Origin: Bacilli bacterium
Lineage (GTDB): Bacteria; Bacillota_I; Bacilli_A; RFN20; CAG-288
DNA: 64,000 nt
NCBI GenBank assembly: GCA_017470005.1
Contig: JAFUFH010000036.1
Span: 4,241-68,240 of the forward strand
Direction: 5' to 3'
Translations under genes and position numbers: made by a program
Part shown: positions 2,810 to 43,388 of the stretch, in pieces
How the letters are laid out: every line of letters starts with the position of its first letter
Numbering within the stretch: the first letter of the stretch is position 1
The notes under the pieces: model-generated
The model's input: only the letters and a program-made list of their open reading frames with translations
What the model was told of the DNA's origin: nothing
The model's database searches: none

Positions 2810-2849
2810 GGGCTGTTTCTCCTTTTATGTGGGAATTTCTAAAACGAAA

Positions 2850-3323
2850 TTACCAACGATAGTGTGCATAAGCTTGGTTGGCTTGAGCACTCTTATGCAT
2901 ATCATCTCTTCTCTTGACAGCACCACCAGTGCCGTTAGCAGCATCGATGATTTCGCCAGCAAGTTTGTCAGTCATGGTCTTTTCATTTCTCAATCTGGAG
3001 AAAGTGACTAACCATCTGAGGCCTAAAGTGACCTTTCTTTCAGGGCTGACTTCAATCGGGACTTGAAGGTTGGAAGCGCCAACTCTTCTACCCTTTAATT
3101 CGACATCAGGCATGATGTTGCCTAAGGCGATTTCGAAGACTTCAAGAGCGGGTTTGCCGGTCTTGGCTTCGACTTTTTCGAAAGCACCATATAAGATGGT
3201 TTGAGCAGTGCCCTTCTTACCATCTAACATGATACGGTTGATCAATCTGGTAACTAACTTAGAGTTATAGATAGGATCGGGTAAAACATCTCTTTTTTGT
3301 ACTGAACCGTTCTTTCTAGGCAT
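2850..3323 (-). CDS. rpsG: 30S ribosomal protein S7
   Basis: 157 aa starting [29 protein letters not shown], which is typical of S7. It sits between rpsL and fusA. Confidence 0.95.
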
Positions 3324-3337
3324 TGTAGTTACACTCC

Positions 3338-3763
3338 TTACTTCTTCTGGATGCTTCCATCTTTCTTAGTTCCGTATAAGGATCTACCCTGTTTACGGTT
3401 CTCGACGCCAAAGCATTCCATAGCGCCTCTGATGATGTGATATCTGACACCAGGTAAGTCTCTAACACGACCACCACGGATCAAAACCACTTTGTGCTCC
3501 TGAAGGTTATGACCTTCACCACCGATGTAGGCAGTGACTTCATAGCCATTGGAGAGTCTAACTCTGGCGTATTTACGAGCAGCAGAGTTAGGTTTTTTAG
3601 GAGTCATGGTACCAACACGGGTACAGACACCTTTCTTTTGAGGAGCGCTGATAGTGCGTTCCTTCTTGTTAAGAGAATCCCATCTCTTACCGAGAGCAGG
3701 AGCCTTGGATTTGTAAAGAGGCTTTTCTCTCTCGTTTCTGACCAACTGATTAATAGTAGGCAT
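3338..3763 (-). CDS. rpsL: 30S ribosomal protein S12
   Basis: 141 aa starting MPTINQLVR and containing PKKPNSA.RK, which is typical of S12. Confidence 0.95.
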
Positions 3764-3876
3764 TTTTTTCCTCCCGGATCATTAAATTTGTATAAAGTTC
3801 CTATTGCACACAACCCCGGGTGTTTCCTGCTCTTCCCATAAAAAGAGCGGGCTTAGCCCGTAATTGCAGCGTGAAG

Positions 3877-3905
3877 ATTATAGACTATACAAACTCGTGT
3901 GTCAA
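3877..3905 (-). promoter_or_regulatory. Sigma-70-type promoter of the str operon: TTGACA, 17-nt spacer, TATAAT
   Basis: The minus strand reads TTGACA (3905..3900), a 17-nt spacer, then TATAAT (3882..3877). It lies ~115 nt upstream of the rpsL start codon. Confidence 0.7.
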
Positions 3906-4004
3906 AGGATTTTTTACTTTTTTTGAAACGCCCGGGTTCGTGTGCATAAAACTCTTAGCTTTTCCGTGATGAAATAACAATCTCAAAATATGTGGTGAAC
4001 CCTG

Positions 4005-4424
4005 TTATTGTAATTGTTTCTTCATCCAAATATGAGGGCAATACTCTTCATAACCCACCTCACCAAAGGCAGAGAACCCTACTTCTTCATAAAAGGGAAT
4101 CGCTTGGACTTGAGAATGTAAATAAACCTCTGTAGCACCCATTTCTTTGGCTACTTCACAAGCTTTTTTCACCATTTCTAACCCGATGCCTTTTCCTCTA
4201 TATGGCTTTCTAACAGCAAATCTACCCACTTTATATCTTTGCTCTTTTTCATCATAGAAAACGCGGGCAACCGCAATGGGTGTTCCGTTTTCATAAGCAA
4301 CTAAATGGGTAGCATAGGAATCGATGCCATCAAATTCATCACAAAAATGTTGTTCCTCTACAAACACTTCCTTTCGAATGAGAACGACATCATTTGTCAT
4401 GTTTTGGAATTCCAATATTTTCAT
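4005..4424 (-). CDS. GNAT family N-acetyltransferase
   Basis: 139 aa with an acetyl-CoA binding-type motif (RKPYRGKGIGLEMV) and a GNAT fold pattern. Its start abuts the uvrB stop. Confidence 0.8.
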   Translation of the reverse strand: MKILEFQNMTNDVVLIRKEVFVEEQHFCDEFDGIDSYATHLVAYENGTPIAVARVFYDEKEQRYKVGRFAVRKPYRGKGIGLEMVKKACEVAKEMGATEVYLHSQVQAIPFYEEVGFSAFGEVGYEEYCPHIWMKKQLQ

Positions 4425-6412
4425 TATAACTGTGCTTTTAATTCTAATATTTGATCACGCAACTGTGCTGCTTCTTCAAAATCCAACGCTTTTGCTGCAC
4501 GGTTCATTTCGGAAGTGAGATTCTTGATCATCAATTGAATCTGTTTGGTAGTCATCTTTCCTTGATCTTGTTTCTTGCTTCTCTTAGCATTTTCATCATC
4601 TATCATATGTATAGGAGGAGTGATGTTTTTAATGATAGTCTTAGGAGTGATTCCATGTTCTTCGTTATATTGTTGTTGGATTCTTCTCCTACGTTTGGTT
4701 TCTTCAATTGTGATCTTCATTCCATCGGAAATCTCATCACAATACATGATGACTTTACCTTGTGCGTTTCTAGCAGCGCGTCCCGCGATTTGAGTCAAGG
4801 ATCTCGCACTTCTTAAAAAGCCTTCTCTATCCGCATCTAAAATAGCAATAAGAGAGACTTCTGGAATATCTAAACCTTCTCTCAATAAATTGATACCTAC
4901 TAAGACATCATAGATACCTTTTCTTAATTTATAAATAATTTCGGTTCTTTGAAGAGTAAGAATTTCATGTTGCAAATAAGCCACTTTCAAATCATGAGCT
5001 TTAAAGAAGTCGGTGAGATTCTCAGCATCTTTCACCGTTAAAGTAACTACTAGTACTCTCTCATTCTTCTCAATTCTCTGTTTGATTTCTTCCATCAAAT
5101 CATAGACAGGGTTATTGGTGTTAAATCTAACTTCAATCACAGGGTCTAATAAACCAGTAGGACGAATGATTTGTTCTACTACCTTATTATCTACTTGGGC
5201 TAATTCATAATCACCAGGAGTGGCAGAAGTACAGATGACGTGATTGATTTTCTTTTCAAATTCTTCAAATCTTAAAGGTCTATTATCTAAAGCGGAAGGC
5301 AATCTAAATCCATAATTGACTAAAGTTTCTTTTCTGCTTCTATCTCCATGATACATTCCTCCAATTTGAGGAATAGAGACATGACTTTCATCAATGAACA
5401 ATAAAAAGTCTTTCGGTAAGTAATCAAACAGGGTATAAGGAGTCTCTCCTTCTTTTCTTCCATCAAAATGCCTTGCGTAATTTTCAATACCAGAGCACAT
5501 TCCAAATTCAGATAAAGAATCTAAATCATGTTCGGTTCTTTGTTTTAATCTTTCACTTTCCAAATACATTCCTTGCTGATCAAAGTAAGAGAGTCTCTCA
5601 TATAATTCTTCTTTGATGGTTTCACAAGCTCTTTTGATTCTTGCTAAACCAGATGCGTGCTCATGGGCAGGGAAGAAAGGATAATAATCTAATGTGTGCA
5701 AGACTTCTCCTGTAGTAGGAGTGACTTGATCAATTTCAGAGATTTCATCAAAATCCGAATAAACACGAATAAAGAAGTTATCTCCGTTGGGAGGATAAAT
5801 ATCCATCACATCTCCCTTGATAGAGAAAGTGCCTGGCTGAAGATCCATATCATTTCTTTTGTATTGAGCAATAATGAGTTTTTCTGCAATATCATGGGGA
5901 TTAAAAGGTTCTCCTACATGAAGAGTAAAAGCAAGGTCACGATATTCTTCTGGATCACTCAAACCATAAATGGCAGCGACAGAACAAACAACAATCGTGT
6001 CTTTTCTTTCTAATAAAGAATTGACTGCACTGGCTCTCATCATCTCAATTTCGTCGTTCATTACAACTTGTTTATCGATGTAAGTGTCTGTCTTAGGAAT
6101 ATATGCTTCCGGTTGATAAAAATCAAAATTGGAAATGAAATATTCGACTCTATTATGTGGGAACAATTCTTTAAATTCCCCATAAAGTTGAGCTGCTAAT
6201 GTCTTGTTGTGAACCAATACCATCGTTGTCCTTTGTAAGCATTGAATAATATTGGCCATCGTAAAAGTTTTACCGGTACCCGTTGCACCTTGTAACACTT
6301 GCCATTTCTTGCCTTCTTCTACCCCTTTGACAAGACGATCAATTGCTTGTGGCTGATCTCCTGTGGGAGAAAAGGAACTCACTAGTTCAAAAGGATGTTC
6401 GTTATCTGTCAT
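4424..6412 (-). CDS. uvrB: Excinuclease ABC subunit B
   Basis: 662 aa with Walker A GATGTGKT, helicase motifs, and a C-terminal UVR domain (ALDFEEAAQLRDQI). Confidence 0.95.
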   Translation of the reverse strand: MTDNEHPFELVSSFSPTGDQPQAIDRLVKGVEEGKKWQVLQGATGTGKTFTMANIIQCLQRTTMVLVHNKTLAAQLYGEFKELFPHNRVEYFISNFDFYQPEAYIPKTDTYIDKQVVMNDEIEMMRASAVNSLLERKDTIVVCSVAAIYGLSDPEEYRDLAFTLHVGEPFNPHDIAEKLIIAQYKRNDMDLQPGTFSIKGDVMDIYPPNGDNFFIRVYSDFDEISEIDQVTPTTGEVLHTLDYYPFFPAHEHASGLARIKRACETIKEELYERLSYFDQQGMYLESERLKQRTEHDLDSLSEFGMCSGIENYARHFDGRKEGETPYTLFDYLPKDFLLFIDESHVSIPQIGGMYHGDRSRKETLVNYGFRLPSALDNRPLRFEEFEKKINHVICTSATPGDYELAQVDNKVVEQIIRPTGLLDPVIEVRFNTNNPVYDLMEEIKQRIEKNERVLVVTLTVKDAENLTDFFKAHDLKVAYLQHEILTLQRTEIIYKLRKGIYDVLVGINLLREGLDIPEVSLIAILDADREGFLRSARSLTQIAGRAARNAQGKVIMYCDEISDGMKITIEETKRRRRIQQQYNEEHGITPKTIIKNITPPIHMIDDENAKRSKKQDQGKMTTKQIQLMIKNLTSEMNRAAKALDFEEAAQLRDQILELKAQL

Positions 6413-22772: not shown

Positions 22773-25700
22773 CTAGGATTTTCTTACAATACGCTTTGTC
22801 ATACGGATGAGCGCTTGTTGTTCTAAGAAGAGAACAAACAAAGCAATGTAATCCATGAGTCTTTCTTTGTCTAAGAATTGATTCATCTCAGGAAGAGAGA
22901 AGTCTTTCAGTGTTTTCTTAAGATAATCGCTGTATCGATAGCTTTGCGTCGCGTTGATAGAAGAAATGACGAAGTCTTTATCTTTGTGATATTCATAAAG
23001 AAGAGCTTCTCTGACAAAGAAGAGCACTTCTGGAGAGATTGCCGTTCCTGTATACAAGTCAATAAATTGATCGACATAATAGGAATAAACACCCTCAGAA
23101 GCTTGAACAAATGCTTTCACTTCCTCTTTTGGCTCATGAACATAAACCAAATTCGTCATTATCTTTTGATGAGCTTTTCTTACATCCTGACTGAGCTCTT
23201 GATAGGACAACAAAGAAGGAACAAGAAGTTTGCTGTTCAAGAAGAGGAACAAACCATTTCTAGCGGTAAGATTGGTCAACTGTGAAGAGAAAAACACCGC
23301 AGAAAAAATATTCTTTTCCAAACAGAATTGACTTCTAAAAGTAGGGAAGGCCTTCATATCATATTCGTCTTCTGTAAACGGAATTGCGTCTTTTAATTCT
23401 TTTAACGTGATTTCTTTCTTTTTATAGACTAAGTTATAAATTGCCTCATACATCACTTGAGGAACACCGATATGAGCGATAAGACGTAACGCTTTGCTCT
23501 TATTTCCTTCATAGGATAAAGAACAAGATTGCATAAACCCATTGATAGCCAAAAGAAGAGCTTCTTGGTCCGCGTTCATAAAATAGAACTTTTTGCCGCT
23601 CTTAGAAAAGGCGTAGAACCGTTCTCCAGGGGCGACATATAATTTGTTCCCTTCATATTCTGTCGTGAAATAAGAAACAAACGCACTCTTATCTTTAATA
23701 CAAAATGCTTCTTCATAAAGAGTTTGATATACTGCGCTTTCATACTCTCCTACGTATCCAAGAGCAAAGTTGTGGAAGGCTTGTCCATCCTCATTTAAAT
23801 CTACAAATTCTTGGTCCATAGCGCATACTTCGTGGAAGGTTTGCGAAGAATAGCCACAAAGCTCTCCAATCTGCACGCAATCACGCTTGAGTTTCTTTTC
23901 TTCCTCTTTAAACATTTGAACTTTGATGGCAATATCGGAAAGAGGAACAGAAAATCTTGGATCATTCGTAGAGAAAGCGTTGTAATATAACGGTCTCGAA
24001 TTGTTGCTCTTTCCCATCAAATAAATTTTCTTTTCAAATGCTTTTCTCATCACCAAGTAATAAGAAAGAGAAGGATCCTTTTGGAGAAGAGTTCTATGGT
24101 CTTCTCGGTCTAATAAAGAAATATTCTTTTTAAATATGTCTTCATCCACAACCAAACGATTAGAAATCGTCATCGAGTCTCCTTCTGTAGGGACTCCGAT
24201 GAAGTGAGCAAGATGGCCACCTTCTTGTTCTACTTTTCCTTCAAAGATCATTTCCCTTCCAAATAAGGGCATAAAGAAATGAATTCTATCTTCTGAAAAC
24301 GCCTCTGCTGAATAAGCATCAAAGAATAATCCCATTAGATATTCGATGTTTTCTCTATCTTTTTCATCAAAATAGATAGGACCGTCGATCGTTTCTTTAT
24401 AACCGATGAAATTTCTTCCTTTCACAACATATGGAAGAGGTAAATAAGGATCAAAGAAGATTTCACCAGAGTCTACCTGACTCATCAAATGTTCCTTTTC
24501 GTTTCTTTGTATCTTTTTTAATTCTGCTTGTGCTTTGCCGTCAAACGTGGAAACAATCGCACAATTAATTAAAATTCTTAAGACAGGAGGAATGATATCC
24601 ATCTTGGAACAAACTTCTTTTAACGCTTCGTTGCAGGTATATCCTTCCATCATCAAAGAGAAGATATCATGTACACAAAGTAACACTCCATTCTCTTCAT
24701 TTGTTAATAACAATGATTTTAACTGGGGAAGATAAGGTAGAGTAGAGTTGGTGATGATAGCTTGTTGTTCAATCAATTCAACTGCAGATCGATAATAAGA
24801 GATATCTCCATTAAAAATGGGATAGAATTCTTTATTTGTGACTTCACAATCACAAATGAAATCTGGGAAGCTAGGAGTAATAAAGGAAAAAGCTTCCTGG
24901 AAATATAAATCTTTACCTTCTTTGGCTTTCACATAGAAAGAGATCGCATCCATCTCATTCATATTGCGAAGAGAATACTGCCCACCATATAAATCTAATA
25001 CCGGTAAAAGCAATCCAATCTTTCGATAATTCACGCCTTGGATATATTCAAATAAAGAGGCAAAGTCCTCTCCATCTCCTTCTTCAAAATCGAAATATTT
25101 TGCTTGTTGGAAAGCGGGATAAGGAAGACCCATCAATTTCATAAAAAGGGATGGTAATTTGGCACAATTTGGATGTTTTTGAATATATTTTTTTACCGCT
25201 TTATAAGAGTAAATGATACCTTTTTTATCTTGGCTATCAAAAACAAAATGAGTGGGTTGTACTTTCTGAACTACTTCATTATCTATTTTCTCAAAGAAAC
25301 GAGATTCTAAAGCGTACATATTAAATCTCGCTCCAAGATAAACGAAACGATTCTGTAAAAAGAAGGTTTCATAATCTTGATCTAATACCGTGAATCCAAA
25401 AAGACCACGAATAGAGAACATCTTTCGATAATAATCGTTCAACAAACGCTTGATCAAAGCTAAGAAATATCTTCTTAAACACAGAATAGCTTCCAATTCT
25501 GCTCCGTTGTATTCTTTGTTTTTCTTACCGAAGGCTTTGACAAATTTTTCTTGCAAACTCAATTGATCTAAAGGTTTGTAATACGTCAAGAAAACGTCTT
25601 TATCCACCTCTAAAGGAGCGCTGCAAAAGTCCATCAAAAGTTTATCTGATGTTTCTTCTTCTAAGAGAAGCTCGGCTGGAATCTTTTCTGGGTCGATATA

Positions 25701-26234
25701 AATTGGATAGATAAGACCATCATCTAAACTAAGGACATTAAAGATGCATTCTGGTTCTAAGACATAAAATCCATTTTCAATCAAATAATTGATGGCACCA
25801 ATCACAGAAGGGTGGTTTTCTTCTAAAACTCGTATCGGATTGTCTGGTAATCGGAAAGAAGGATTTTTTAAATTCTCTTCAAAATGAATGTTGTAAAGAA
25901 TCTCATCAAAAGTAAGAGGCGTATTTCCTTTTTTGTCTTTTCGAATCATGCATTCTAAAGGAAGGCCTAAACACTGTCTAAAAATCTCTGTCGTCATGAC
26001 AGAATCGATCATCAGACCTAATTTTTTCGTATAAATAGGATACTTTTCTTTAGAAATATATAGTTCATAAAAACGAAATCTCTCTAAAAGGGAGGCTTTG
26101 TCTTCTATGGCCATATGATAATCGCCCTCACCGTTAGAATACACGGTATAAAAGGGGCCTTGGATTTCATATTTATAAGGACTATCGACAGACAATATGG
26201 TCTTGGTAGTGAAAAACTCTGCATTGTATTCCAT
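22773..26234 (-). CDS. Giant hypothetical protein B (1153 aa), paralog of the upstream 1133-aa protein
   Basis: A long uninterrupted ORF with RBS GGGAGG 7 nt upstream. No signal peptide or TM helix is apparent. It shares colinear motifs with protein A (LGLP, CLRRYFLALIKRLLNDYY vs VLRQYLSALINLLYDQY, LMGLPYPAF vs LLGLPYPGY). Confidence 0.85.
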   Translation of the reverse strand: MEYNAEFFTTKTILSVDSPYKYEIQGPFYTVYSNGEGDYHMAIEDKASLLERFRFYELYISKEKYPIYTKKLGLMIDSVMTTEIFRQCLGLPLECMIRKDKKGNTPLTFDEILYNIHFEENLKNPSFRLPDNPIRVLEENHPSVIGAINYLIENGFYVLEPECIFNVLSLDDGLIYPIYIDPEKIPAELLLEEETSDKLLMDFCSAPLEVDKDVFLTYYKPLDQLSLQEKFVKAFGKKNKEYNGAELEAILCLRRYFLALIKRLLNDYYRKMFSIRGLFGFTVLDQDYETFFLQNRFVYLGARFNMYALESRFFEKIDNEVVQKVQPTHFVFDSQDKKGIIYSYKAVKKYIQKHPNCAKLPSLFMKLMGLPYPAFQQAKYFDFEEGDGEDFASLFEYIQGVNYRKIGLLLPVLDLYGGQYSLRNMNEMDAISFYVKAKEGKDLYFQEAFSFITPSFPDFICDCEVTNKEFYPIFNGDISYYRSAVELIEQQAIITNSTLPYLPQLKSLLLTNEENGVLLCVHDIFSLMMEGYTCNEALKEVCSKMDIIPPVLRILINCAIVSTFDGKAQAELKKIQRNEKEHLMSQVDSGEIFFDPYLPLPYVVKGRNFIGYKETIDGPIYFDEKDRENIEYLMGLFFDAYSAEAFSEDRIHFFMPLFGREMIFEGKVEQEGGHLAHFIGVPTEGDSMTISNRLVVDEDIFKKNISLLDREDHRTLLQKDPSLSYYLVMRKAFEKKIYLMGKSNNSRPLYYNAFSTNDPRFSVPLSDIAIKVQMFKEEEKKLKRDCVQIGELCGYSSQTFHEVCAMDQEFVDLNEDGQAFHNFALGYVGEYESAVYQTLYEEAFCIKDKSAFVSYFTTEYEGNKLYVAPGERFYAFSKSGKKFYFMNADQEALLLAINGFMQSCSLSYEGNKSKALRLIAHIGVPQVMYEAIYNLVYKKKEITLKELKDAIPFTEDEYDMKAFPTFRSQFCLEKNIFSAVFFSSQLTNLTARNGLFLFLNSKLLVPSLLSYQELSQDVRKAHQKIMTNLVYVHEPKEEVKAFVQASEGVYSYYVDQFIDLYTGTAISPEVLFFVREALLYEYHKDKDFVISSINATQSYRYSDYLKKTLKDFSLPEMNQFLDKERLMDYIALFVLFLEQQALIRMTKRIVRKS

Positions 26235-26240
26235 ATTTGC

Positions 26241-29200
26241 TTACCTCCCTATATGACTTTCTTTAATCGCATAGCGATGAATCAGTTTCTGAACAAGATA
26301 AGTAATAAATCCTAAGATACTTTGGGCGGTAGAAGAGATATATCCCGCTCGGACCCTCTCTATCTCAGGGAAATGTTTTTGAACGCTCTGTAAAAGGGTA
26401 TCTTCTGAATTTAAATCAAACAAGAAATTCAAAATACACTTGTTCTCTCTAGAATACGTATCCAATATGACCGAGGAAGCATAAGCGACACTTTCTACTT
26501 TCTCCATATTGATTTGTCCAAATTCTGTTAGCCACTCTCTTAACTGATCCTTAGAAGGAGTAAAGAAAGTGAATAACACTTCAGGTATCGTAGAAGAAGC
26601 GTAATCAAAATAAGGAAGCAATCCATCACCATATCCGTCTAAATCATAATTGTGTCTAGGATGATATTTGATATCAATTAGAGCATAATCACTCAAAATC
26701 TTAAATTGATCATGAACCATGCCGTTTAAAGCAAAATCATAATCCGCGGATAAATCTTCTTTGAACGGAAATGCTTTTCTAAAAGGCTCATCATAAGCGG
26801 AGTGATTGATAGAGGTGCATCTTCTACAAATAGAATCTCTAAATTGAATCTTTTCAAAGAGATCTTCAATACTTCCTACAGACAAGTCATAGTCTTTATA
26901 CTTCAATATGGCTAAATAAGGGAAACCAATCAACCCTAAAATAATGGGAGTCTCATATTCTTTTGCCATATTGCGTTGATTATATAAAGAATCAAATCTC
27001 GTGGCGAAATCTAACATAGGTTTCTTATCACACTGACAGAAATAAAGATCATCCGAATAAATATCGGAAGTATAAGCGTTAAAGATTGTACCTAAAATGA
27101 TATAGGGATAAGGAAGTCTTGGATTGTAATCAAAGTTGAGACAGAATTCGTTTGCGTTTTCCGGAACAATGTGTCTTGAGACATAGACAGAGTAGGCAAT
27201 CTCAACCATCTTATAGATATACACCAAACGTGTAAATATCATCATATGCTTGTAAATAACTGGATATAATGATTCGTTACAATCAAATAAGATACGATAT
27301 AAATCTCCGTTATCTGCCAGTTCAGCAAACGAGATTGCCTGTTCATAGAAGTCATCATAGGAAATCTCATTAGGGAAGAAGGCGGCAATGAGAGATAACA
27401 TCATCTTTTTATCCACATGGATATAAGGATAGAGAATCGGGTCTACTTTTTGAATGTCAAAAGAGAGAACGGAAGTATAAGTTCCGTCCGCTAATTTTCC
27501 AAAGAAAGCACCAAAATCATAATCTAAAGACATCGGTTCATCAAAATATACGCCTCTTTCACTCGCTTTGGCACGAATATAGGACATATAAATGTTATAT
27601 GGTTCCGCTTCATTAGAGTCGATCTTCTCATGGATGGAAGGAGAGGAGTTCATGCAAAGATGACAAATATGATGTTTATACGGAATTTGAGAGCTGATAT
27701 CTTTTGTTGTTGTCAATTTGGAGGAGAGGTTCTCGGGTAATCCAAGATTTTGAATGATATATCCTCTCTTTGCTATCACGCTATCTTCTTTGGGATGATG
27801 CCTTTCATAAAGGTCTCCCAAGTATTGAATTTTAGATTCGATAGCACTCTTTTGACAAGAGCAGACATAAGGTTGAGAGAAGTAGCCTTCTCTAAAGGAA
27901 TACGCGAGTTGTCCAAAGCTGACATACGGATAAGGAAGGTTAGGTTCAAAGGACTCGTTATATTTGGTCGGACGATCTAACGCCATCAAAGAGAGGGTAT
28001 CTTTGTTTTCAATCAGAATGATTCGATATTCTCTTTCCGCCACCAAAACAGGATAAGTTAACACATAATAGAAGAAATCTAAGAATCTCTCATCCTTATA
28101 TTGTTGTAAATCATAAGTGACAAGCATCAAATCGATAGCGCGATCTAAAGAGATATCCACAAAACTGTGGTAGAAATAATACAGAGCTTGATTCTTAGAT
28201 TTTGAATCAATTTCTCTTAGTTTCTTTTCTAATTTCTCGTCTTCTAACAATCCTCTATCTAAAAGATAGGTCGGATATAATTCCTCGACAAAAGACATTC
28301 TCTTTTTATCAAAGAGAGAGGCTAAAGATTCACACCTCTTCTTCTTTCTAAAAGTCAAAGAGACCTTATTTTCTTTGTCTTCGATCAACAATGGCTTTTC
28401 ACAAGAATATTGAACGCCATTATCCAACAAGAAACGAAGCATGAACGCATATTGATGTTCTTGTTCTCCGGATAAATAAGAATAGAAAACATCATAACGC
28501 TTTGCGGATAAATAAATTTCACTATTGGTAATAGAGAAAGAGAAAGGAAGAGAATTGACGATATCCTCTACGGTAAAGGTTTCTAAATGCTTTACAAATT
28601 TATATCCAGGATAAGGAAGGCCTAACAAAGAATAGATGGTTAAGATATCTCCACCCGGTTCTTTTTCCATCGCATCTGCAACCAATTCAGTAATCTTTCC
28701 TTTATCCATGGTAGAAAAATACCATTTCTCTTTATCTAAAGAAAACATATCCGCATTAAAAGAGGATAAAGTATATAAATCTCTTTCAATATGAATCTTA
28801 GAAATAGACATAAAGGAAAGCTTTGCGGTCACTTTATTCAATACTTCAAAAGAATATTGATCGTATAAAAGATTGATCAGGGCAGATAAGTATTGGCGAA
28901 GAACATAAGCGTATCTTCTCTTAAACGGAAGGCCAACAGGGATGGAAGCTAATTCCATATCGTAATCATCGTTGACAAAATAGGAGAGTCTTCTATCGAA
29001 AGAATAACCATCAAACTTCTTCATATCTGCGATGAATTGTTTATCCGCTTTAGATCCCAAAAAATCGATAGAGAATCTTTCACTTCTCGCTTCTTTATAT
29101 CGTTCCATCAACTCAGGAGAAAGCATGGATTCCTCTACAAAAACAGGGACGCTCTTCTCATTTCTTTCCATGAAGGGCTTTGTTTCATCATAAAGGAAGA

Positions 29201-29642
29201 AGAAACCTTTCTTCAAACAATATAATTTAAAATCATCCGTATACCATTTACGATTTAGTTTCTGATACAAAAGAATATAAGATTCTCGTTTTAAATCAGA
29301 AAGTGAAGAATCAAAATGAAGTTGTGTGATGATCTCTTGGCTCAAATCCAAACGTTCAAAAAGAGCATCGGGTAATCCCAATACCTGTTTGAGGACTTCA
29401 TTATCTTGGCTTTCTTTCTCATCAAAGGTGTTTCCGTTAGTAACGGTATACGTTTTACGATTCAATATTCTTTCTTTATAGAAACGAAGCGCACTTTCTA
29501 TGCTATCTTTGTCATCTAAAGAGAGAACAATGTCATCTTTATTGTCTAAAAAAGCCACATGAAACATGCCGAAGAGAGCTTGTCGATAATCTGCACGAAA
29601 ACTGATATTCAGTTTTCTGTTTTTATATAATTGATAACCCAT
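26241..29642 (-). CDS. Giant hypothetical protein A (1133 aa) with internal duplicated Cys-motif module
   Basis: A long ORF whose ATG overlaps the upstream stop by 1 nt (TAATG). No signal peptide is apparent. The repeated motif series is described in the findings. Confidence 0.85.
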   Translation of the reverse strand: MGYQLYKNRKLNISFRADYRQALFGMFHVAFLDNKDDIVLSLDDKDSIESALRFYKERILNRKTYTVTNGNTFDEKESQDNEVLKQVLGLPDALFERLDLSQEIITQLHFDSSLSDLKRESYILLYQKLNRKWYTDDFKLYCLKKGFFFLYDETKPFMERNEKSVPVFVEESMLSPELMERYKEARSERFSIDFLGSKADKQFIADMKKFDGYSFDRRLSYFVNDDYDMELASIPVGLPFKRRYAYVLRQYLSALINLLYDQYSFEVLNKVTAKLSFMSISKIHIERDLYTLSSFNADMFSLDKEKWYFSTMDKGKITELVADAMEKEPGGDILTIYSLLGLPYPGYKFVKHLETFTVEDIVNSLPFSFSITNSEIYLSAKRYDVFYSYLSGEQEHQYAFMLRFLLDNGVQYSCEKPLLIEDKENKVSLTFRKKKRCESLASLFDKKRMSFVEELYPTYLLDRGLLEDEKLEKKLREIDSKSKNQALYYFYHSFVDISLDRAIDLMLVTYDLQQYKDERFLDFFYYVLTYPVLVAEREYRIILIENKDTLSLMALDRPTKYNESFEPNLPYPYVSFGQLAYSFREGYFSQPYVCSCQKSAIESKIQYLGDLYERHHPKEDSVIAKRGYIIQNLGLPENLSSKLTTTKDISSQIPYKHHICHLCMNSSPSIHEKIDSNEAEPYNIYMSYIRAKASERGVYFDEPMSLDYDFGAFFGKLADGTYTSVLSFDIQKVDPILYPYIHVDKKMMLSLIAAFFPNEISYDDFYEQAISFAELADNGDLYRILFDCNESLYPVIYKHMMIFTRLVYIYKMVEIAYSVYVSRHIVPENANEFCLNFDYNPRLPYPYIILGTIFNAYTSDIYSDDLYFCQCDKKPMLDFATRFDSLYNQRNMAKEYETPIILGLIGFPYLAILKYKDYDLSVGSIEDLFEKIQFRDSICRRCTSINHSAYDEPFRKAFPFKEDLSADYDFALNGMVHDQFKILSDYALIDIKYHPRHNYDLDGYGDGLLPYFDYASSTIPEVLFTFFTPSKDQLREWLTEFGQINMEKVESVAYASSVILDTYSRENKCILNFLFDLNSEDTLLQSVQKHFPEIERVRAGYISSTAQSILGFITYLVQKLIHRYAIKESHIGR

Positions 29643-31252
29643 TAGAATTCCGCAAATTTAAGCACGCAATCATTACTAGAAATCGAATCTACTTTGAAAC
29701 CATATTTTGGTTTATTTCCATCATCAAAGACAAAGTTTGGGTAGGATTCATGGTTAAAAGTAGAATTCAATCTGTATAAAGAATTTGTTCCTGAGAATGT
29801 TCCACCATTGATTCTCTTTCCTGTAGCAGGAAGCAAAGAAATCAATCTTCCACGATAGAAAGACATATCCGTATCATCTAAAGCTTGTTCCCAAGAATAA
29901 GACTTCGTATTGTTATAAAGATAGGTGTATGCATAACTGGTTCCCCACTCACTAGAATAAGGGGGTAATTTATCATAAGCATTACCATCCCAGACCGTTC
30001 CGCTTCTTGTTGCCACTAATTTTCCTACGGTTGCATTGACGTGATAGAGAAGTACACCCACCGTAGAATAAGTGGAAAGTCCATTAGAATATTTGTGAGT
30101 AGAATCACTGTAATTTAACCCAGTTGGTGTGTAATATTCCATGATCAAATATTCATCAAATGCGGTGTTGTTATACACCATATTAGAAGAATGATAAATC
30201 GGTAAAATAAAGCAGTTTCCTGTCTCCGTTTGAGACTTCAAAGTTAAAGTATAATCATTTGCTGCCAAATATTCTTCGGTAATAATGGTTGGCTTCACCC
30301 AATCTAAAAGATATTTAGAGAAAGCACAATGATCTCCAATATTGAAGTCCATCATATCCACACCACCCATAGGAGTATCCAAGCATTTATCTACTCCGCT
30401 AGGTTCATAATCGTAAGAATAATAATCATCTAAACCTAACATATGGCCTGTTTCATGGATGAAGGTGTGAGCATCAGCGCTCTCTTCCTGCTTTCTAAAA
30501 TATCCAGCATAGTCATATTCTGTTAAGAAATCGACACTAGCCCAGGCATATAAACAAGCATGTTTTCCATCATAAGTGTTTTTCGTATAAGGAGCCCAAG
30601 TAGTGAAAGCCCAATATAACTCACTATCTCTTTGATATGGAGGAGCATAAACTAGCCACACCGCATCAATATAGCCGTCTGCATCCGTATCATATTGAGA
30701 TAAATCCATTTTACTGGCCAAAGAAGTAAGGACTTTATCTAATAAATCTGCAGTATAAACAGCAGCTCCATCCGTAACCTTCTTCGTCTCTTGTTCAAAT
30801 GCTTTTGCGGTCTTATTAATGGTAAAAACAGGAGCTACTTCACCAGAGAGATGAAGCTTGTCAAAGGAAGACTTCTCATAATAAGAAGCAACAGATTCCC
30901 ATCCCGTTTTATCCGAGTTTCCAAAGAACGCATTTTCAATCATGGTCAATTGAGAAGAGGTAAAGGAATAATCTAAAGTCGCGATAGGAACAACAAGAAT
31001 CTTTGAATCACCTGTTGTCGGAAGATATCTGTATCCCATACCTAAGCCGAGATTCTTGTTATTGAGATTTGCACTAGAATAGTTTGATCCATATTTTGGG
31101 GTTCCATAAGTGACATATTCTTTACTTCCGGTATCGTTATAACTGGATTGTTCAAAAATCCCTAAAATATCAAACAAACTAAAGTTGCACGACGTTAGTG
31201 TCGTCAATAATAAGAAGCTAGCAATAGTAGTAAACAGTTTCTTCTTATGCAT
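29642..31252 (-). CDS. Lipoprotein zinc metalloprotease, M6 (immune inhibitor A)-like
   Basis: 536 aa with a signal peptide and lipobox LTSC. The motif HETGHMLGLDDYY fits the HExxHxxGLxDxY pattern of the M6 domain. The subfamily call is tentative. Confidence 0.7.
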   Translation of the reverse strand: MHKKKLFTTIASFLLLTTLTSCNFSLFDILGIFEQSSYNDTGSKEYVTYGTPKYGSNYSSANLNNKNLGLGMGYRYLPTTGDSKILVVPIATLDYSFTSSQLTMIENAFFGNSDKTGWESVASYYEKSSFDKLHLSGEVAPVFTINKTAKAFEQETKKVTDGAAVYTADLLDKVLTSLASKMDLSQYDTDADGYIDAVWLVYAPPYQRDSELYWAFTTWAPYTKNTYDGKHACLYAWASVDFLTEYDYAGYFRKQEESADAHTFIHETGHMLGLDDYYSYDYEPSGVDKCLDTPMGGVDMMDFNIGDHCAFSKYLLDWVKPTIITEEYLAANDYTLTLKSQTETGNCFILPIYHSSNMVYNNTAFDEYLIMEYYTPTGLNYSDSTHKYSNGLSTYSTVGVLLYHVNATVGKLVATRSGTVWDGNAYDKLPPYSSEWGTSYAYTYLYNNTKSYSWEQALDDTDMSFYRGRLISLLPATGKRINGGTFSGTNSLYRLNSTFNHESYPNFVFDDGNKPKYGFKVDSISSNDCVLKFAEF

Positions 31253-31254
31253 GT

Positions 31255-31599
31255 TTAGTCTCCGTAATCTGATCCTCTAGATTCTCTTTCAATGATGCAT
31301 CCGACCTTATCTGCAACATCCATCGCGGTTAAATAGATGGCATCGTGTGCGTCAACTAAGGGATTATCCTCCATTCCGACGAACACAACCTTCTTGTTAG
31401 CACGAGTTACTCTGTCCATTTCTTTTAAGAGATCATCGTATCTTTCTGGTCTTAACATCTTATATCCTTGAAGATAAGTATAGAACTGGGGTTCGATATA
31501 GAAAATAGAACCATCATCGTTTTGATAACAAGTCGCAAAGCGGTTTTTTAAATCGATTAATATCTTCTTATCTTCCCATTCGGGGTATTTTGTTGGCAT
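31255..31599 (-). CDS. Hypothetical protein (114 aa)
   Basis: The ORF has an AAGGAAGG RBS and ends 2 nt before the protease gene start. No family recognised. Confidence 0.6.
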   Translation of the reverse strand: MPTKYPEWEDKKILIDLKNRFATCYQNDDGSIFYIEPQFYTYLQGYKMLRPERYDDLLKEMDRVTRANKKVVFVGMEDNPLVDAHDAIYLTAMDVADKVGCIIERESRGSDYGD

Positions 31600-32053: not shown

Positions 32054-32530
32054 TTAGGCTCCTTTTCTAATGTTGGTCAACACTTCGTTTTCTGCTCTAG
32101 CAAATTCGGGAGGTAAATCCTCTCTGTTTTCAAAGATAACCAAAGTCTCTTTTAAGATAGCAACTAAGAAGTCTACATCCATGCGAAGTTTTTCTACATG
32201 TTGCTTTAATCCGGCATCACGAACCAAAGCAATCAGTTGATTCATATCCTCTAACCAAGAAGCATAATCATATAAGATATTGATTGCTTCTTTCCATTCC
32301 TCTTCAAAGAAGGCTTCTTCCTTCTTAGAGAGTTCAAAGAGGCGCGGATCCTCATCAAACAACTTTAAAACGTTTTCTTTCAAATGTGGGAATGCTTTTT
32401 CAAAATCTACTGTATTTAACTCAATTTCACACAACACATCATACAAAGATAACAAACAGGATGAACCACAAAAATAAGGGCTATCTGCTGCGCTGAGCAA
32501 TTCTAATTTTTCTTGTAATTTTTCTTTCAT
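32054..32530 (-). CDS. Hypothetical helical protein (158 aa)
   Basis: The ORF start overlaps the sirtuin stop (ATGA). No family recognised. Confidence 0.55.
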   Translation of the reverse strand: MKEKLQEKLELLSAADSPYFCGSSCLLSLYDVLCEIELNTVDFEKAFPHLKENVLKLFDEDPRLFELSKKEEAFFEEEWKEAINILYDYASWLEDMNQLIALVRDAGLKQHVEKLRMDVDFLVAILKETLVIFENREDLPPEFARAENEVLTNIRKGA

Positions 32531-33261
32531 ACATGTAACCTCGAGAATAATTCACCAACCTTTTGATGAATGACAACATTCGCTCTACTATCCGCAGAAG
32601 AAGGATCTTTATTGATCAAGACCATATTTCTTCCTCTGAAATAATCAATAAACCCTGCCGCGGGATAAACAACTAAGGATGTACCAGCCACTATCAACAA
32701 GTCCGCATTTTGAATCAAAGTCAATGCGTGTTGAATATCATATTCGTTCAGCCCTTCTTCATAAAGGACAACATCAGGTTTAATCACACCATTACATAAA
32801 GTGCAACGAGGAATTCCATCGCTTTCTTTCACATATTGAGCAGAATATTCTTCATGACAGTCCATACAATAATTTCTATGAACGGAACCGTGCAATTCTA
32901 TGACTTTCTTACTTCCCGCTAATTGATGTAAACCATCAATATTTTGTGTAATGACCGCTTTTAATTTTCCACTCTTTTCTAATTGGGCTAGATAGAGATG
33001 AGCAGCGTTTGGTTTTGCATCTAAAGCTAACATTTTATCCTTATAAAATCGATAAAATTCTTTGCAATTATAGTAAAAGAAAGAGTGAGAAATGATTTGT
33101 TCTGGAGGGTAATCGTATTTTTGATGATAGAGACCATCTACGCTTCTAAAATCGGGAATTCCGCTTTCTGTAGATACACCTGCCCCACCAAAAAAGACGA
33201 TATTATTACTGTCATCAATTAATGCTTGTAATCTTTTTACGTCTTCTTCTAAAGAACTCAT
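32527..33261 (-). CDS. cobB: NAD-dependent protein deacylase, Sir2/CobB family
   Basis: GAGVSTESGIPDFRS, QNIDGLH, and catalytic HG (ELHGS). A Cys4 zinc ribbon is present (CMDC ... CTLC). The start is set at ATG 33261, 7 nt after GGAGGTGG. Confidence 0.9.
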   Translation of the reverse strand: MSSLEEDVKRLQALIDDSNNIVFFGGAGVSTESGIPDFRSVDGLYHQKYDYPPEQIISHSFFYYNCKEFYRFYKDKMLALDAKPNAAHLYLAQLEKSGKLKAVITQNIDGLHQLAGSKKVIELHGSVHRNYCMDCHEEYSAQYVKESDGIPRCTLCNGVIKPDVVLYEEGLNEYDIQHALTLIQNADLLIVAGTSLVVYPAAGFIDYFRGRNMVLINKDPSSADSRANVVIHQKVGELFSRLHV

Positions 33262-33388
33262 ATTCTTTCCACCTCCTGATAACATATTTTAAAATATTTC
33301 CTTAAGTATTGTATATGAATATCCCCTTTTTCCACTGTTTTAACATACTTTTTATCGTTTTCAGCAAATAAGGAGTCACATTTAAGTA

Positions 33389-33558: not shown

Positions 33559-33600
33559 CAAAAATGGGTGTCAGAATGGCTCTGACACCCAATATTTTTT
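33559..33600. terminator. Terminator after por (works on both strands)
   Basis: GGGTGTCAGA-ATGGC-TCTGACACCC flanked by an A-run on one side and a T-run on the other. Confidence 0.8.
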
Positions 33601-40268: not shown

Positions 40269-43200
40269 TTATTTTGCTCCTTTTTCTTTACGGATAAAGC
40301 CGAAATAGACCAAAGATCCAAGACCAGCAAGAGTGGTTAAAGAGAAGACAGAAATCATAACGACATAAGTAACTCTCCACCAAGTAACTTGTTGTTTGAT
40401 GATGGCTTTATAATCGGAAGAAACACCATTTAAGGCATTAGAATTCGCAAGAGAATAGAGGATGTACTTAATATCTTCGTGAATTGCATTTGTTAAGGTA
40501 GCATCACCTTTCAAAGCATCTTCACTCCAATAATCTACTTGAACACCGAATCCGCAGAAAGCAGTAGTTCCATAGAGGATGGATTCTTTAGGGCAAGCTT
40601 TCTTAGTGACACCAGTGAAGTCAGTGACATTGTATCCGTGGAATCCCCACTGTTCTCTCATGATATCTTGAACAACGGCTTTGTTTGCACTACTAGCAAC
40701 AGCACCAATTCTGTTATAAGAAGTCATGACGCCTAAGACTTCATGAGAATAAGAATCCTTCTTTTCTTCGACACCAACCCACTTAGCAGGCATACCTTTC
40801 TTCTCAAAGATATTACCAAGGTTTCTCAATTCTAATTCTCTAGCAGATTGTTCATTGAAGAAGGTGGCAACACCACTTCTATTGATTTCCTGATCGTTGA
40901 AGGCAACGTGTTTGATATTGACTAAACATCCTTTAGATTCCGCACCTTGAACAACAGCACTTCCGACATATCCACTAAGGATAGGATCTTCAGAGAAGTA
41001 TTCACCGCCTCTACCGTTCAATCCGTGTCTATGAAGGTTGACGCCAGGACCGATGATGATGGGGAGTTGGAGAATCAAAGAAGTTTCACCAATGATGATT
41101 TCGCCATTTTCATAAGCGAGTTCTTTGTTGAAAGCGGCAGCAAGGTTTTGTTGAGAAGGACCAACACGAGTACCAGGTTTAGTGGTTTCATAATCTTTAG
41201 CATCCGCATAAGCAACGCCTTGATAGGTACCTTCATCAAAGTAATGGGTATCAGATCCACCAGGGCCGTCATCCGCCTTATCGCCATTGTATCCGACAGA
41301 TTCGATAGGAGCGATATTGTGGAAGGCACTTTGTGCAAAAGCGAGGAATTCCGCGATAGTAACTTTATTCGCTAATTCATCCCATCTTTCATCATCCCAA
41401 GAAGCACCTTTAAGATCGACTAAGTTTAAATCACTCTTCTGACCGAACTTTGCAGTGACTTGTTCCCCAGTCTTAATGGTGTAGAAATCATTGAGGAAGA
41501 CTTTCTTCATCGCATCATTAGGAGTTAAGCCAGAATAAGTCTTAGGATAAGTAGAATTGAAGTCAGATCTAGAGAGATAGTTAACCGTATTAGGCATAAA
41601 GGCATTTAAGTCAGTAGCAAAGTCGCCTTCGCTCAACTTATTGGTAATCTTTGTGCCGTTTGCGGAGAAAGCAAATGTATTGCTATCAAAGTCTCCCCAG
41701 TTCCAAGTATAAACTTTGGAAGCATCACCATTTTCTGTCATACCATCGGCAGTGGTTTTGCCCTGTTTTGCTAAAATATTGTTCAAAGCATCATGAGCAC
41801 CATTACCAGTGGTGAAGTAATAATCGCCAGCATCTAAGATATAAGTCTTTGCAGTCTTGTAGTCATAGCTAGCAAGGTTGCTCATATCAACATGAAGAAC
41901 GACCTCTTCGCTTTCGCCAGCTTTGATAACTCCACTCTTTTCAAAGTCGACCAATTGGATGGCACTCTTTTCAACACCGTTATCCTTATCATATTGTGTA
42001 TAAGGAGTTTGAGCATAGAGTTGGACAGAATGTTTTGCGTCTACAGTACCTGTGTTCTTAACATTGACTTTAACAGTAGCCGTTTTCTTGTCGCCTTTGA
42101 TTTCCACACTAGTGATTTCTTCTTTGAATGTGGTGTAGCTGAGACCATAACCGAAAGGATAAACAACCTCTCTGTTATATCTCCACTCACCATCAGTGGT
42201 AGCAAGACGATAGTCATCTTGTGTCCAAGTGCCAGCTTTAGCGCTCTTGGCACCATTGTTACCGTTAACGATTTCTGCGTAACGAGTTTCAAAATAACGA
42301 TAACCAGTATAGATGCCTTCCGCTTGAACTAAGTAAGAGTTGACGTTATTTCCGTTGATTTCCTCTTCGGTTAAACCAGTCCAAGGAGTCATATCACCAA
42401 AGTTCTTCATTGCAGGGGTGGCTTGAGCGTTAGTGACATGGGTATCTGTTAAGTAAGCACTAGGAGAAACTTTACCGTTTAAAACATCAGCTAAAGCATA
42501 GCATCCATAAGGGCCAGGATATCCCATCCAAAGAATGGCGTCGATGCCATCATCATCTTTGAGTTCTTTGAATTCCATGGTATCCACAGAGTTGATTAAG
42601 ACAATGACTTTGTTGAAGTTTGCTTTTGCTTCTTCAATCAATTGCTTTTCTTCTGTAGAAAGTCCCATGACATTTCCGGTAGAAGTGTTTTGACCTTGAT
42701 CATTGAGTCTATATTCTTTACTTTCACCACCAGGTCTACCGACAACAACGATGGCAGCATCGTTATAATTGGCATATTCACTCTTAAATGCAGGGTTTGC
42801 AGCACTTAATTCCTCTAAGCTGAGTTCATAAACCTTGTCCGTACCAGTGATGCATCCATATTCAGGGCTAGAAGCACCAAAGCCTTGGCTTCCCCAGGCC
42901 TTATCTGCAAAATAGTTTTCGTATGCTTTCTTCATAGAAGGATTGATATTGAATCCTTTTTCTTTAAAAGCATTGTAGATTTCGGTGTGGAAGTTGTCAA
43001 TGGTGTTACGGTCAGCAATAGAACCAGCAGAGTTACCATAAACAGGGGCGTAACTTCTGACACCAAACATCGTAATCTTAGCGTTAGAAGCAATAGGAAG
43101 AGCATTTTCGTTGTTCTTTAAGAGTGCGAAGGTTTCTTCTGCCTCACGAATTGCAAATTCCTTATAGCCTTCCACAGCTTCTTTGGCTGTCTTAAATTTG

Positions 43201-43388
43201 GACTTGAAAGTCCAGGGATCAGAAGCTTCGCCTTCAGAGACTTTTTCATACGTCTTGATTTGACTGACCGTTCCGAAAGTCTGATCCATCTGATTGGTGT
43301 ACTTCTCCATCAAAGTACCGGCGGTAATAGACGCGCCAAGTAAAAAGATTGAGAGAATAGATGCACCATGTAAAATCTTGGGTTTCAT
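40269..43388 (-). CDS. Glycoside hydrolase family 3 (beta-glucosidase/xylosidase-like), membrane-anchored, permuted domain order
   Basis: 1039 aa. GH3 catalytic-domain motifs (KHVAFNDQE, VMTSYNRIG, WGFHGYNVTDF) lie in the C-terminal third. The alpha/beta-sandwich and Fn3-like parts come first. It has an N-terminal signal/anchor and a C-terminal TM helix. Confidence 0.85.
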   Translation of the reverse strand: MKPKILHGASILSIFLLGASITAGTLMEKYTNQMDQTFGTVSQIKTYEKVSEGEASDPWTFKSKFKTAKEAVEGYKEFAIREAEETFALLKNNENALPIASNAKITMFGVRSYAPVYGNSAGSIADRNTIDNFHTEIYNAFKEKGFNINPSMKKAYENYFADKAWGSQGFGASSPEYGCITGTDKVYELSLEELSAANPAFKSEYANYNDAAIVVVGRPGGESKEYRLNDQGQNTSTGNVMGLSTEEKQLIEEAKANFNKVIVLINSVDTMEFKELKDDDGIDAILWMGYPGPYGCYALADVLNGKVSPSAYLTDTHVTNAQATPAMKNFGDMTPWTGLTEEEINGNNVNSYLVQAEGIYTGYRYFETRYAEIVNGNNGAKSAKAGTWTQDDYRLATTDGEWRYNREVVYPFGYGLSYTTFKEEITSVEIKGDKKTATVKVNVKNTGTVDAKHSVQLYAQTPYTQYDKDNGVEKSAIQLVDFEKSGVIKAGESEEVVLHVDMSNLASYDYKTAKTYILDAGDYYFTTGNGAHDALNNILAKQGKTTADGMTENGDASKVYTWNWGDFDSNTFAFSANGTKITNKLSEGDFATDLNAFMPNTVNYLSRSDFNSTYPKTYSGLTPNDAMKKVFLNDFYTIKTGEQVTAKFGQKSDLNLVDLKGASWDDERWDELANKVTIAEFLAFAQSAFHNIAPIESVGYNGDKADDGPGGSDTHYFDEGTYQGVAYADAKDYETTKPGTRVGPSQQNLAAAFNKELAYENGEIIIGETSLILQLPIIIGPGVNLHRHGLNGRGGEYFSEDPILSGYVGSAVVQGAESKGCLVNIKHVAFNDQEINRSGVATFFNEQSARELELRNLGNIFEKKGMPAKWVGVEEKKDSYSHEVLGVMTSYNRIGAVASSANKAVVQDIMREQWGFHGYNVTDFTGVTKKACPKESILYGTTAFCGFGVQVDYWSEDALKGDATLTNAIHEDIKYILYSLANSNALNGVSSDYKAIIKQQVTWWRVTYVVMISVFSLTTLAGLGSLVYFGFIRKEKGAK

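Follow-up and report, generated by a model that had tools for sequence, protein, structure and literature searches.

Two giant paralogous proteins of uncultured gut Bacilli consist of eight copies of a phage-associated module, two of which keep a putative four-cysteine metal site

The DNA analyzed here (the window: 64,000 nucleotides, positions 4,241 to 68,240 of contig JAFUFH010000036.1 in the Bacilli bacterium assembly GCA_017470005.1) encodes on its minus strand two giant proteins of 1133 and 1153 aa, referred to in the following as proteins A and B. Protein A is a single open reading frame (ORF), and the ORF list of the window contains no overlapping ORF of at least 100 aa that would compete with it. 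It comprises four homologous modules of 265-300 aa, two of which bear four cysteines each, arranged as one CxC and one CxxC motif. The start of protein B lies only 6 nt past the stop of protein A. The features of this gene pair are, in window coordinates:

26241-29642, minus strand: protein A, a single 1133-aa ORF with four homologous modules
28848-29642, minus strand: module 1 of A (aa 1-265), from the HHalign comparison N1-C1; 'LSLDDKDS' in place of CxCxK; GLP at aa 89-91
27978-28847, minus strand: module 2 of A (aa 266-555), from HHalign; 'YFSTMDKGK', without Cys tetrad; GLP at aa 341-343
27153-27977, minus strand: module 3 of A (aa 556-830), copy 1 of the original prediction; LPYPYV, C594-x-C596, GLP at 634-636, C660-H-x-C663
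26244-27152, minus strand: module 4 of A (aa 831-1133), copy 2 of the original prediction; LPYPYI, C869-x-C871, GFP at 906-908, C939-R-R-C942
27855-27863, minus strand: CxC of module 3 (C594, C596), where the fourth strand ends and the long helix begins in the AlphaFold2 (AF2) model
27654-27665, minus strand: CHxC knuckle of module 3 (C660, H661, C663)
27030-27038, minus strand: CxC of module 4 (C869, C871)
26817-26828, minus strand: CRRC knuckle of module 4 (C939, C942)
22773-26234, minus strand: protein B, 1153 aa, a collinear four-module paralogue of A without conserved Cys

The original prediction had described a tandem duplication of about 270 aa within window positions 26718-27941 (aa 568-975 of protein A), in which one ordered motif series occurs twice, about 274 residues apart. 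Every motif quoted is present at the residues given: LPYPY at aa 569 and 843, CxC at aa 594/596 and 869/871, GLP or GFP at aa 634 and 906, CxxC at aa 660/663 and 939/942, and DYDF at aa 707 and 967. The duplication also has statistical support from three methods. BLASTP aligns the copy 1 half to the copy 2 half with 37 bits (E 2e-7, 22% identity over 235 aa), and the Smith-Waterman score of the two halves is 110 compared with 38 +/- 6 in shuffled sequences (n=1000; z 11.4), none of the 1000 shuffles reaching 110. HHalign of the corresponding slices of a 36-orthologue alignment (C1-C2) yields a probability of 98.8% with E 9e-17 over 197 columns, at a score of 120 versus at most 19 for column-shuffled controls. 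DYDF, on the other hand, has to be struck from the series, as the copy 1 region is hypervariable across orthologues and the consensus of copy 2 is AEYxFA, so that the recurrence of this motif is a chance match.

The internal duplication is thus real, but a two-fold repeat is too low a count, since the two copies correspond to modules 3 and 4 of four. Module 1 matches module 3 (HHalign N1-C1) with a probability of 96.4% and E 1e-9, and the comparisons N1-N2 and N2-C2 reach 91.9 and 92.2%, respectively (both E ~6e-7), whereas shuffled-column controls over the module pairs score at most 22 with probabilities of at most 1.6%. Each quarter of protein A contains an (L)G(L/F)P turn (aa 89, 343, 635, and 907), of which G89 and P91 in module 1 are invariant in the alignment of A orthologues. 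The AF2 model of full-length A (predicted local distance difference test, pLDDT, 90.7; predicted template modeling score, pTM, 0.79) predicts the same order of elements in every quarter: four short strands, a long helix, another helix, two short helices, and a short strand. A model of the module alone (aa 556-745; pLDDT 90.0, pTM 0.85) is similarly confident. According to these models, the module core of about 140 aa would start with four short beta-strands containing LPxPxV, followed by a long helix that begins at CxC-x-K, a second helix and the GLP turn, after which two short helices and a short strand lead into the C(H/R)xC knuckle.

Protein B has the same organization. The alignments of the A and B families match with a probability of 100% (E 3e-51, 1037 columns), and shifting one against the other by one, two or three modules still gives 95-98.8%. 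Among the modules of A, module 1 is the best conserved and the closest to protein B. The A/B gene pair is therefore eight copies of one module; no further paralogue or module copy was found in the window. Only two of the eight, modules 3 and 4 of A, have kept the Cys tetrad. The CxCxK position reads L-D-D-K in module 1 and T-M-D-K in module 2, the positions of B homologous to the cysteines of A are D623/K625/S706 and M886/A888/Y958, and no conserved Cys column exists among the 29 sequences of the B family. Of the two degenerate motif versions that had been proposed for protein B, LPLPYVVKG is a true homologue of LPYPYV, but FICDCEV is a chance match: it aligns to aa 428-434 of protein A, which are not homologous to the Cys positions, and its cysteines C461 and C463 occur in two of the 29 B sequences each. 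Hydropathy analysis revealed no signal peptide or membrane segment in either protein.

Conservation of individual residues was counted in the 36 closest clusters, and variant patterns were followed in 59 full-length orthologues of A. In module 3, C594 is conserved in 34 of 36 clusters, C596 in 25 (replaced by Ser in nine), C660 in 34, and C663 in 33, and H661 within the knuckle is present in all 36. In module 4, C869 is invariant (36/36), and C871, C939, and C942 are found in 34, 35, and 30 clusters, respectively, with Asp replacing C942 in five. K598 behind the CxC is conserved too, as are, to at least 90%, the two arginines of the second knuckle, R940 and R941 (window 26820-26825). Both tetrads are intact in 30 of the 59 orthologues. 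Where single substitutions occur, they are confined to one position per site, namely C596 to Ser (12/59) and C942 to Asp (6/59), and in 10 of the 12 Ser-containing sequences (CSCC) Q597 is at the same time exchanged for Glu. In addition, six orthologues have lost two or more cysteines of site 1, and four have lost three or all four cysteines of site 2; both sites are gone in only one of the 59. Residues of two segments lying 65 residues apart are thus kept or lost together, as one shared metal site predicts. As indirect evidence, the pattern fits one putative metal site per module that would be stabilizing yet dispensable.

When the library (1.8e9) was searched exhaustively with the A family as profile (E cut-off 0.001), 241 cluster representatives at 50% identity were retrieved, comprising about 37 full-length A orthologues, about 30 B-type paralogues and at least 70 short proteins. 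The short proteins have 200-650 aa and match only aa 560-730 of protein A, with whole-library E values from 1e-17 to 1e-7. In the opposite direction, a hidden Markov model (HMM) built from the short proteins alone detects both Cys-bearing modules of A, at aa 566-701 with 85 bits (independent E value, i-E, 4e-19) and at aa 841-946 with 40 bits (i-E 3e-5). All of these stand-alone relatives are annotated as "hypothetical protein," but 57 of the 64 inspected match the PHROG family phrog_19778 (best E 9.5e-135). Profile searches in either direction thus identify the module core as a homologue of the domain at the N-terminus of phrog_19778 proteins. Neither protein A alone nor protein B matches any PHROG model; the link thus depends on profiles. 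The protein had been described as otherwise unassignable, and this no longer applies, because its module is part of a recognizable, if unnamed, phage-associated family.

The stand-alone relatives share the consensus LPxPxV..YG.F.F....CSCxKxAIxNYI ... FP ... FKDxLCHxCNxxxP....YGxxFxQxYGWYI, in which the four cysteines are the only columns invariant in all 64 sequences. They are invariant in the joint module alignment as well; a module of this family is defined by CxC and CxxC at a distance of 60-90 residues. Together with the concerted losses among A orthologues, this marks CxC and CxxC as conserved family features that behave as one unit, as the split site suggested earlier would predict. Members of phrog_19778, such as gp29 of phage phiCT19406A (AJA42719.1) and a protein of Clostridium algidicarnis (WP_216111822.1), resemble protein A through their N-terminal domain of about 140 aa, which shows the ordered series LPxPxV / CxCxK / (G)(L/F)P / CHxC. 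They differ from it in having 290-460 aa with one module, which is usually followed by a DUF2726/Vsr-like nuclease, and in being borne by phages or mobile elements, whereas the 1133 aa of protein A comprise four modules, two of them with Cys, and no nuclease, and its gene lies in a housekeeping chromosomal region. Protein A accordingly has the profile match and, in modules 3 and 4, the Cys tetrad of a phrog_19778-type module, but without the C-terminal nuclease it is not a full-length phrog_19778-type protein. The layout of the C-terminal half of A recurs in P0066, a 580-aa protein on the metagenomic contig L047, which consists of two Cys4 modules with helical extensions and no nuclease (26% identity to aa 564-945 of A, E 8e-21). 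P0066 is half the size of A, retains the tetrad in both modules and has another neighborhood. Positions 1952-4966 of the contig cover its gene together with the next one, which begins four nt past it and encodes a protein with two motifs read by eye, a P-loop (GGPGTGKS) and one of DEAH type (DEAHR).

At the C-terminus, about half of the short proteins have a domain marked by the motif E..D(I/V)(Y/F)...EYQGxQH...D..K, in which E, D, EYQG, Q, H, and D are invariant and K is conserved to at least 90%. Pfam assigned 13 of 26 such domains to DUF2726 and one to DUF559, and DUF2726 is placed among the PD-(D/E)XK families together with Vsr and DUF559 (PMC3424549). The link to nucleic acids that had been suspected from the cysteines alone is in this way upheld by domain association, the stand-alone relatives being fused to a PD-(D/E)xK nuclease domain. 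Moreover, up to 35 of the 64 stand-alone proteins match PHROGs annotated as HNH, homing or intron-encoded nucleases. A profile of the nuclease domain found nothing significant among PDB sequences, 3R3P and Vsr included. A and B both lack this domain and reach about 0 bits with its HMM. CpXC, TerB_N, and HRDC are other fusion partners, each met once or twice among the 64 proteins (HRDC once). The gene encoding module and nuclease is located directly upstream of the terminase small subunit in a prophage of Clostridium algidicarnis as well as in Clostridium phage phiCT19406A (gp29); the two loci are:

L005, 8001-8951: module-plus-nuclease gene directly upstream of the terminase small subunit
L045, 4001-5089: module-plus-nuclease gene directly upstream of the terminase small subunit

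Stand-alone relatives are also present in Staphylococcus SPbeta-like phages, and another copy adjoins genes for ParE, a primase, and an integrase. The nuclease domain occurs in at least 511 stretches of IMG/VR. It is preceded by the Cys4 module in only 10 of the best 80 loci, so that several N-termini, the module among them, are interchangeable in front of it. A comparable layout is known from the homing endonuclease I-Bth0305I, in which N-terminal DNA-binding motifs are followed by a C-terminal Vsr-like nuclease (PMC3239194). Like this Vsr-like EDxHD enzyme (PDB 3R3P), the phage relatives would combine an N-terminal recognition region with a C-terminal PD-(D/E)xK domain of the Vsr/DUF559/DUF2726 type, and their conserved E, D, H, and D residues fit EDxHD or Vsr-like homing endonucleases, as far as sequence alone can tell. 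I-Bth0305I, however, has NUMOD and helix-turn-helix motifs and no Cys4 module, and the comparison does not extend to A and B, which are devoid of any nuclease domain.

The module itself has no counterpart in the catalogs searched. Proteins A and B yielded no match in Pfam, NCBIfam or PADLOC, 31 individual modules compared with Pfam and NCBIfam at E values up to 5 gave no consistent match, and the 64 stand-alone proteins showed neither a consistent module match in Pfam or NCBIfam nor a consistent PADLOC family. PDB sequence searches with the A-family and module profiles found nothing significant. With Foldseek, the full-length model of A reached at best E 1.2 (PDB) and 0.7 (BFVD), and the module-only model E 3.7 against PDB. 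The predicted fold therefore appears not to be represented among solved structures, within the sensitivity of the tools used. In particular, no Pfam or NCBIfam model or solved fold from the catalogued zinc-finger, zinc-ribbon or HNH (His-Me) families matches the module. An HNH nuclease, as the string 'CHxCN' might suggest, was considered and rejected, there being no match to an HNH family or fold.

The explanation that we favor, with a probability of roughly 0.6 for the whole, is a structural zinc module that functions in nuclease targeting in phages and became the building block of A and B. As to its parts, the Cys tetrads are likely to be metal sites, and it is probable, though with somewhat less assurance, that the metal is zinc. 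The four thiolates of each Cys-bearing module would bind one Zn2+, and this ion would anchor two elements to the N-terminal end of the long helix: the CxxC knuckle and the long loop that follows it, which AF2 models with confidence although it has no regular secondary structure. That such a site would be structural and dispensable, not catalytic, is suggested by the presence of the fold signature without Cys in six of the eight modules and by the several losses of whole tetrads among A orthologues. In this the module resembles structural Zn(Cys)4 sites, which are dispensable in paralogous copies, and in its predicted secondary structure it shares with zinc-knuckle and treble-clef sites a CxxC knuckle after a short strand and two ligands at the N-terminus of a helix. 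It departs from them in that the halves are in reverse order with 62-67 residues between, and no zinc-finger model of Pfam or fold in PDB matches it. In the phage proteins, the module would direct the nuclease to its substrate as an exchangeable recognition domain that precedes a common catalytic domain; for such nucleic-acid targeting, which is suggested by analogy, we would give even odds. In A and B it would have been recruited to serve as the repeated element of a large, lineage-specific cytoplasmic assembly, probably an A-B hetero-oligomer. Any specific function assigned to the two proteins would be doubtful.

Several observations weigh against this explanation. H661 (window 27660-27662) is unchanged in all 29 Cys-variant orthologues listed, including those that have lost every Cys, so its role lies outside the zinc model, and the Arg-Arg pair at the equivalent place of module 4 is likewise not explained by a simple zinc staple. 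Furthermore, the Ser found at position 596 in 12 of the 59 orthologues is a poor Zn ligand; that Glu597 substitutes for it is a conjecture. DNA targeting by the phage module is deduced solely from domain architecture, no DNA-binding fold or family having been matched, and adjacency and paralogy are the only pointers to a complex of A and B. The conserved synteny described below is confined to one lineage, where inheritance alone may be enough to account for it.

Among the alternatives, the one that survives best, though we regard it as unlikely, is that A and B are multivalent nucleic-acid binders that read a long DNA or RNA target, with the Cys sites in the binding surface and every module still recognizing nucleic acid as it would in the phage nucleases. 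The fusion of the module to nuclease domains and once to HRDC, the P-loop and DEAH-type protein adjoining P0066, and the conservation of K598 and of the Arg pair in 'ICRRC' would agree with this role. Nucleic-acid binding by A is, however, disfavored by its pI of 5.3, its net charge of -33 and its lack of a nuclease domain. Protein B is equally acidic (pI 5.2, net charge -34), as are both families (median pI 5.3 for A and 5.4 for B); the stand-alone modules are near neutral (median pI 7.2). Moreover, binding through the Cys sites is difficult to reconcile with the loss of the tetrad from six of eight modules, and searches for a DNA-binding fold or family found none.

A slightly smaller chance is left for an iron or iron-sulfur (Fe-S) center in the tetrad, which would make the module a redox or oxygen sensor. 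Four Cys thiolates suit a rubredoxin-type iron site equally well as a zinc site and, less typically, a cluster. Asp, which replaces C942 in six orthologues, is a known cluster ligand. Both hosts and phages are strict anaerobes, and pyruvate:ferredoxin oxidoreductase (PFOR) is encoded next door. Against these points, CxC and CxxC separated by 62-67 residues do not form a recognized Fe-S motif, no match to a Fer4 or rubredoxin family was obtained, and a site that six of the eight modules do without, as do about 10 of the 59 orthologues, suits a structural staple better than a sensor.

It is very improbable that the cysteines are redox-active or catalytic residues, acting as a CxxC thiol-disulfide switch or as a nucleophile, and not metal ligands. 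CxxC is also the thioredoxin-type motif, and the only weak PDB hits of the module profile were thioredoxin-like proteins (E 0.055 and 0.62), but these hits are not significant and the predicted fold matches neither thioredoxin nor any other structure. A two-Cys switch would also not predict that four cysteines of two distant segments are lost together, nor that the tetrad is missing from most modules. Finally, the idea that the motifs recur by chance or as a compositional artefact of a protein with 15% aromatic residues, to which DYDF and FICDCEV lend some color, is refuted by the shuffled sequences, the HHalign result with its clean controls and the detection of both copies by an independent HMM from unrelated proteins.

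The surroundings of the two genes are those of a core chromosome, as the window also encodes EF-G, UvrB, gyrase B and A, CTP synthase, PFOR, and P-type ATPases. A gene farther away (40269-43388, minus strand) encodes a 1039-aa glycoside hydrolase family 3 protein with its domains in the permuted order GH3_C, Fn3-like, GH3_N. Upstream of protein A the following features were identified:

33565-33591: strong bidirectional terminator just upstream of CobB, between PFOR and CobB
32527-33285, minus strand: CobB-type sirtuin (NCBIfam equivalog)
between CobB and the M6-like peptidase, minus strand: three small proteins of 158, 121, and 114 aa, the last at 31255-31599
29642-31252, minus strand: M6-like lipoprotein metalloprotease, 536 aa, with a lipoprotein signal (…LLTTLTSC) and an intact HETGH

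These genes and those of A and B form a tightly packed minus-strand cluster in the order CobB, 158-, 121-, and 114-aa proteins, M6-like peptidase, A, B. The CobB stop codon overlaps the next small gene and that of the M6-like peptidase the start codon of protein A. From CobB through B, the cluster of about 10.5 kb looks like one operon, judging by its layout. The sirtuin is not a defense-type SIR2; this identity was rejected because the CobB equivalog scores 335.7 bits against a cut-off of 221 and Dsr1 hits are at noise level. The metalloprotease scores 88.6 with TIGR03296, under the cut-off of 110.8, and a PDB search with it found nothing. The pairing of this extracellular enzyme with two cytoplasmic giants is odd. 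The 114-aa protein likewise has no match in Pfam, NCBIfam, PHROG or PDB. Protein A is encoded in 35 species representatives, and essentially all of them keep this gene order; they are without exception uncultured gut or rumen Bacilli, variously labeled "Mollicutes" or Candidatus Enterosoma metagenome-assembled genomes. Horizontal transfer or a genomic island was rejected in view of the core-chromosome window and a synteny fixed across about 35 species. Across these loci, identities are 71-86% for PFOR, 59-75% for CobB and 47-79% for the 114-aa protein (60-79% in all but one locus), which is among the best conserved of the cluster, but only 31-55% for A and 22-37% for B. A and especially B thus evolve faster than PFOR, CobB or the 114-aa protein; the last also far exceeds the M6-like peptidase in conservation.

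What follows for A and B themselves is more speculative. They might constitute a lineage-specific eight-module machine derived from a phage nuclease-targeting domain, a proposal to which we attach little probability. In one version it would represent a new class of modular, multivalent recognition proteins with a logic analogous to transcription activator-like effector (TALE) or zinc-finger arrays; in the other, it would act as an acidic decoy and capture phage nucleases or the substrates of these enzymes. If the recognition version were true, engineering could draw on the phage module as a new DNA-recognition domain.

Some elements of this picture are familiar, namely metal-stabilized accessory domains on nucleases and repeats that shed an ancestral metal site. 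New are an uncatalogued domain, without Pfam, NCBIfam or PADLOC model and without detectable fold relative in PDB despite confident models, and its eight-fold amplification into two lineage-specific giant proteins. The practical value lies mainly in a well-defined target on which family curation as well as structural and biochemical studies can build. For phrog_19778, the Cys4 module before a Vsr/DUF2726-type nuclease provides a first structural and functional handle, and the module becomes a candidate for a new recognition domain of phage homing-type nucleases. In the gut Bacilli, a lineage with reduced genomes, two unannotated genes of about 3.4 kb each are now recognizable as the eight-fold amplification of a phage-associated module, and A and B clearly illustrate how a repeat can expand while its ancestral, putative metal site is progressively lost.

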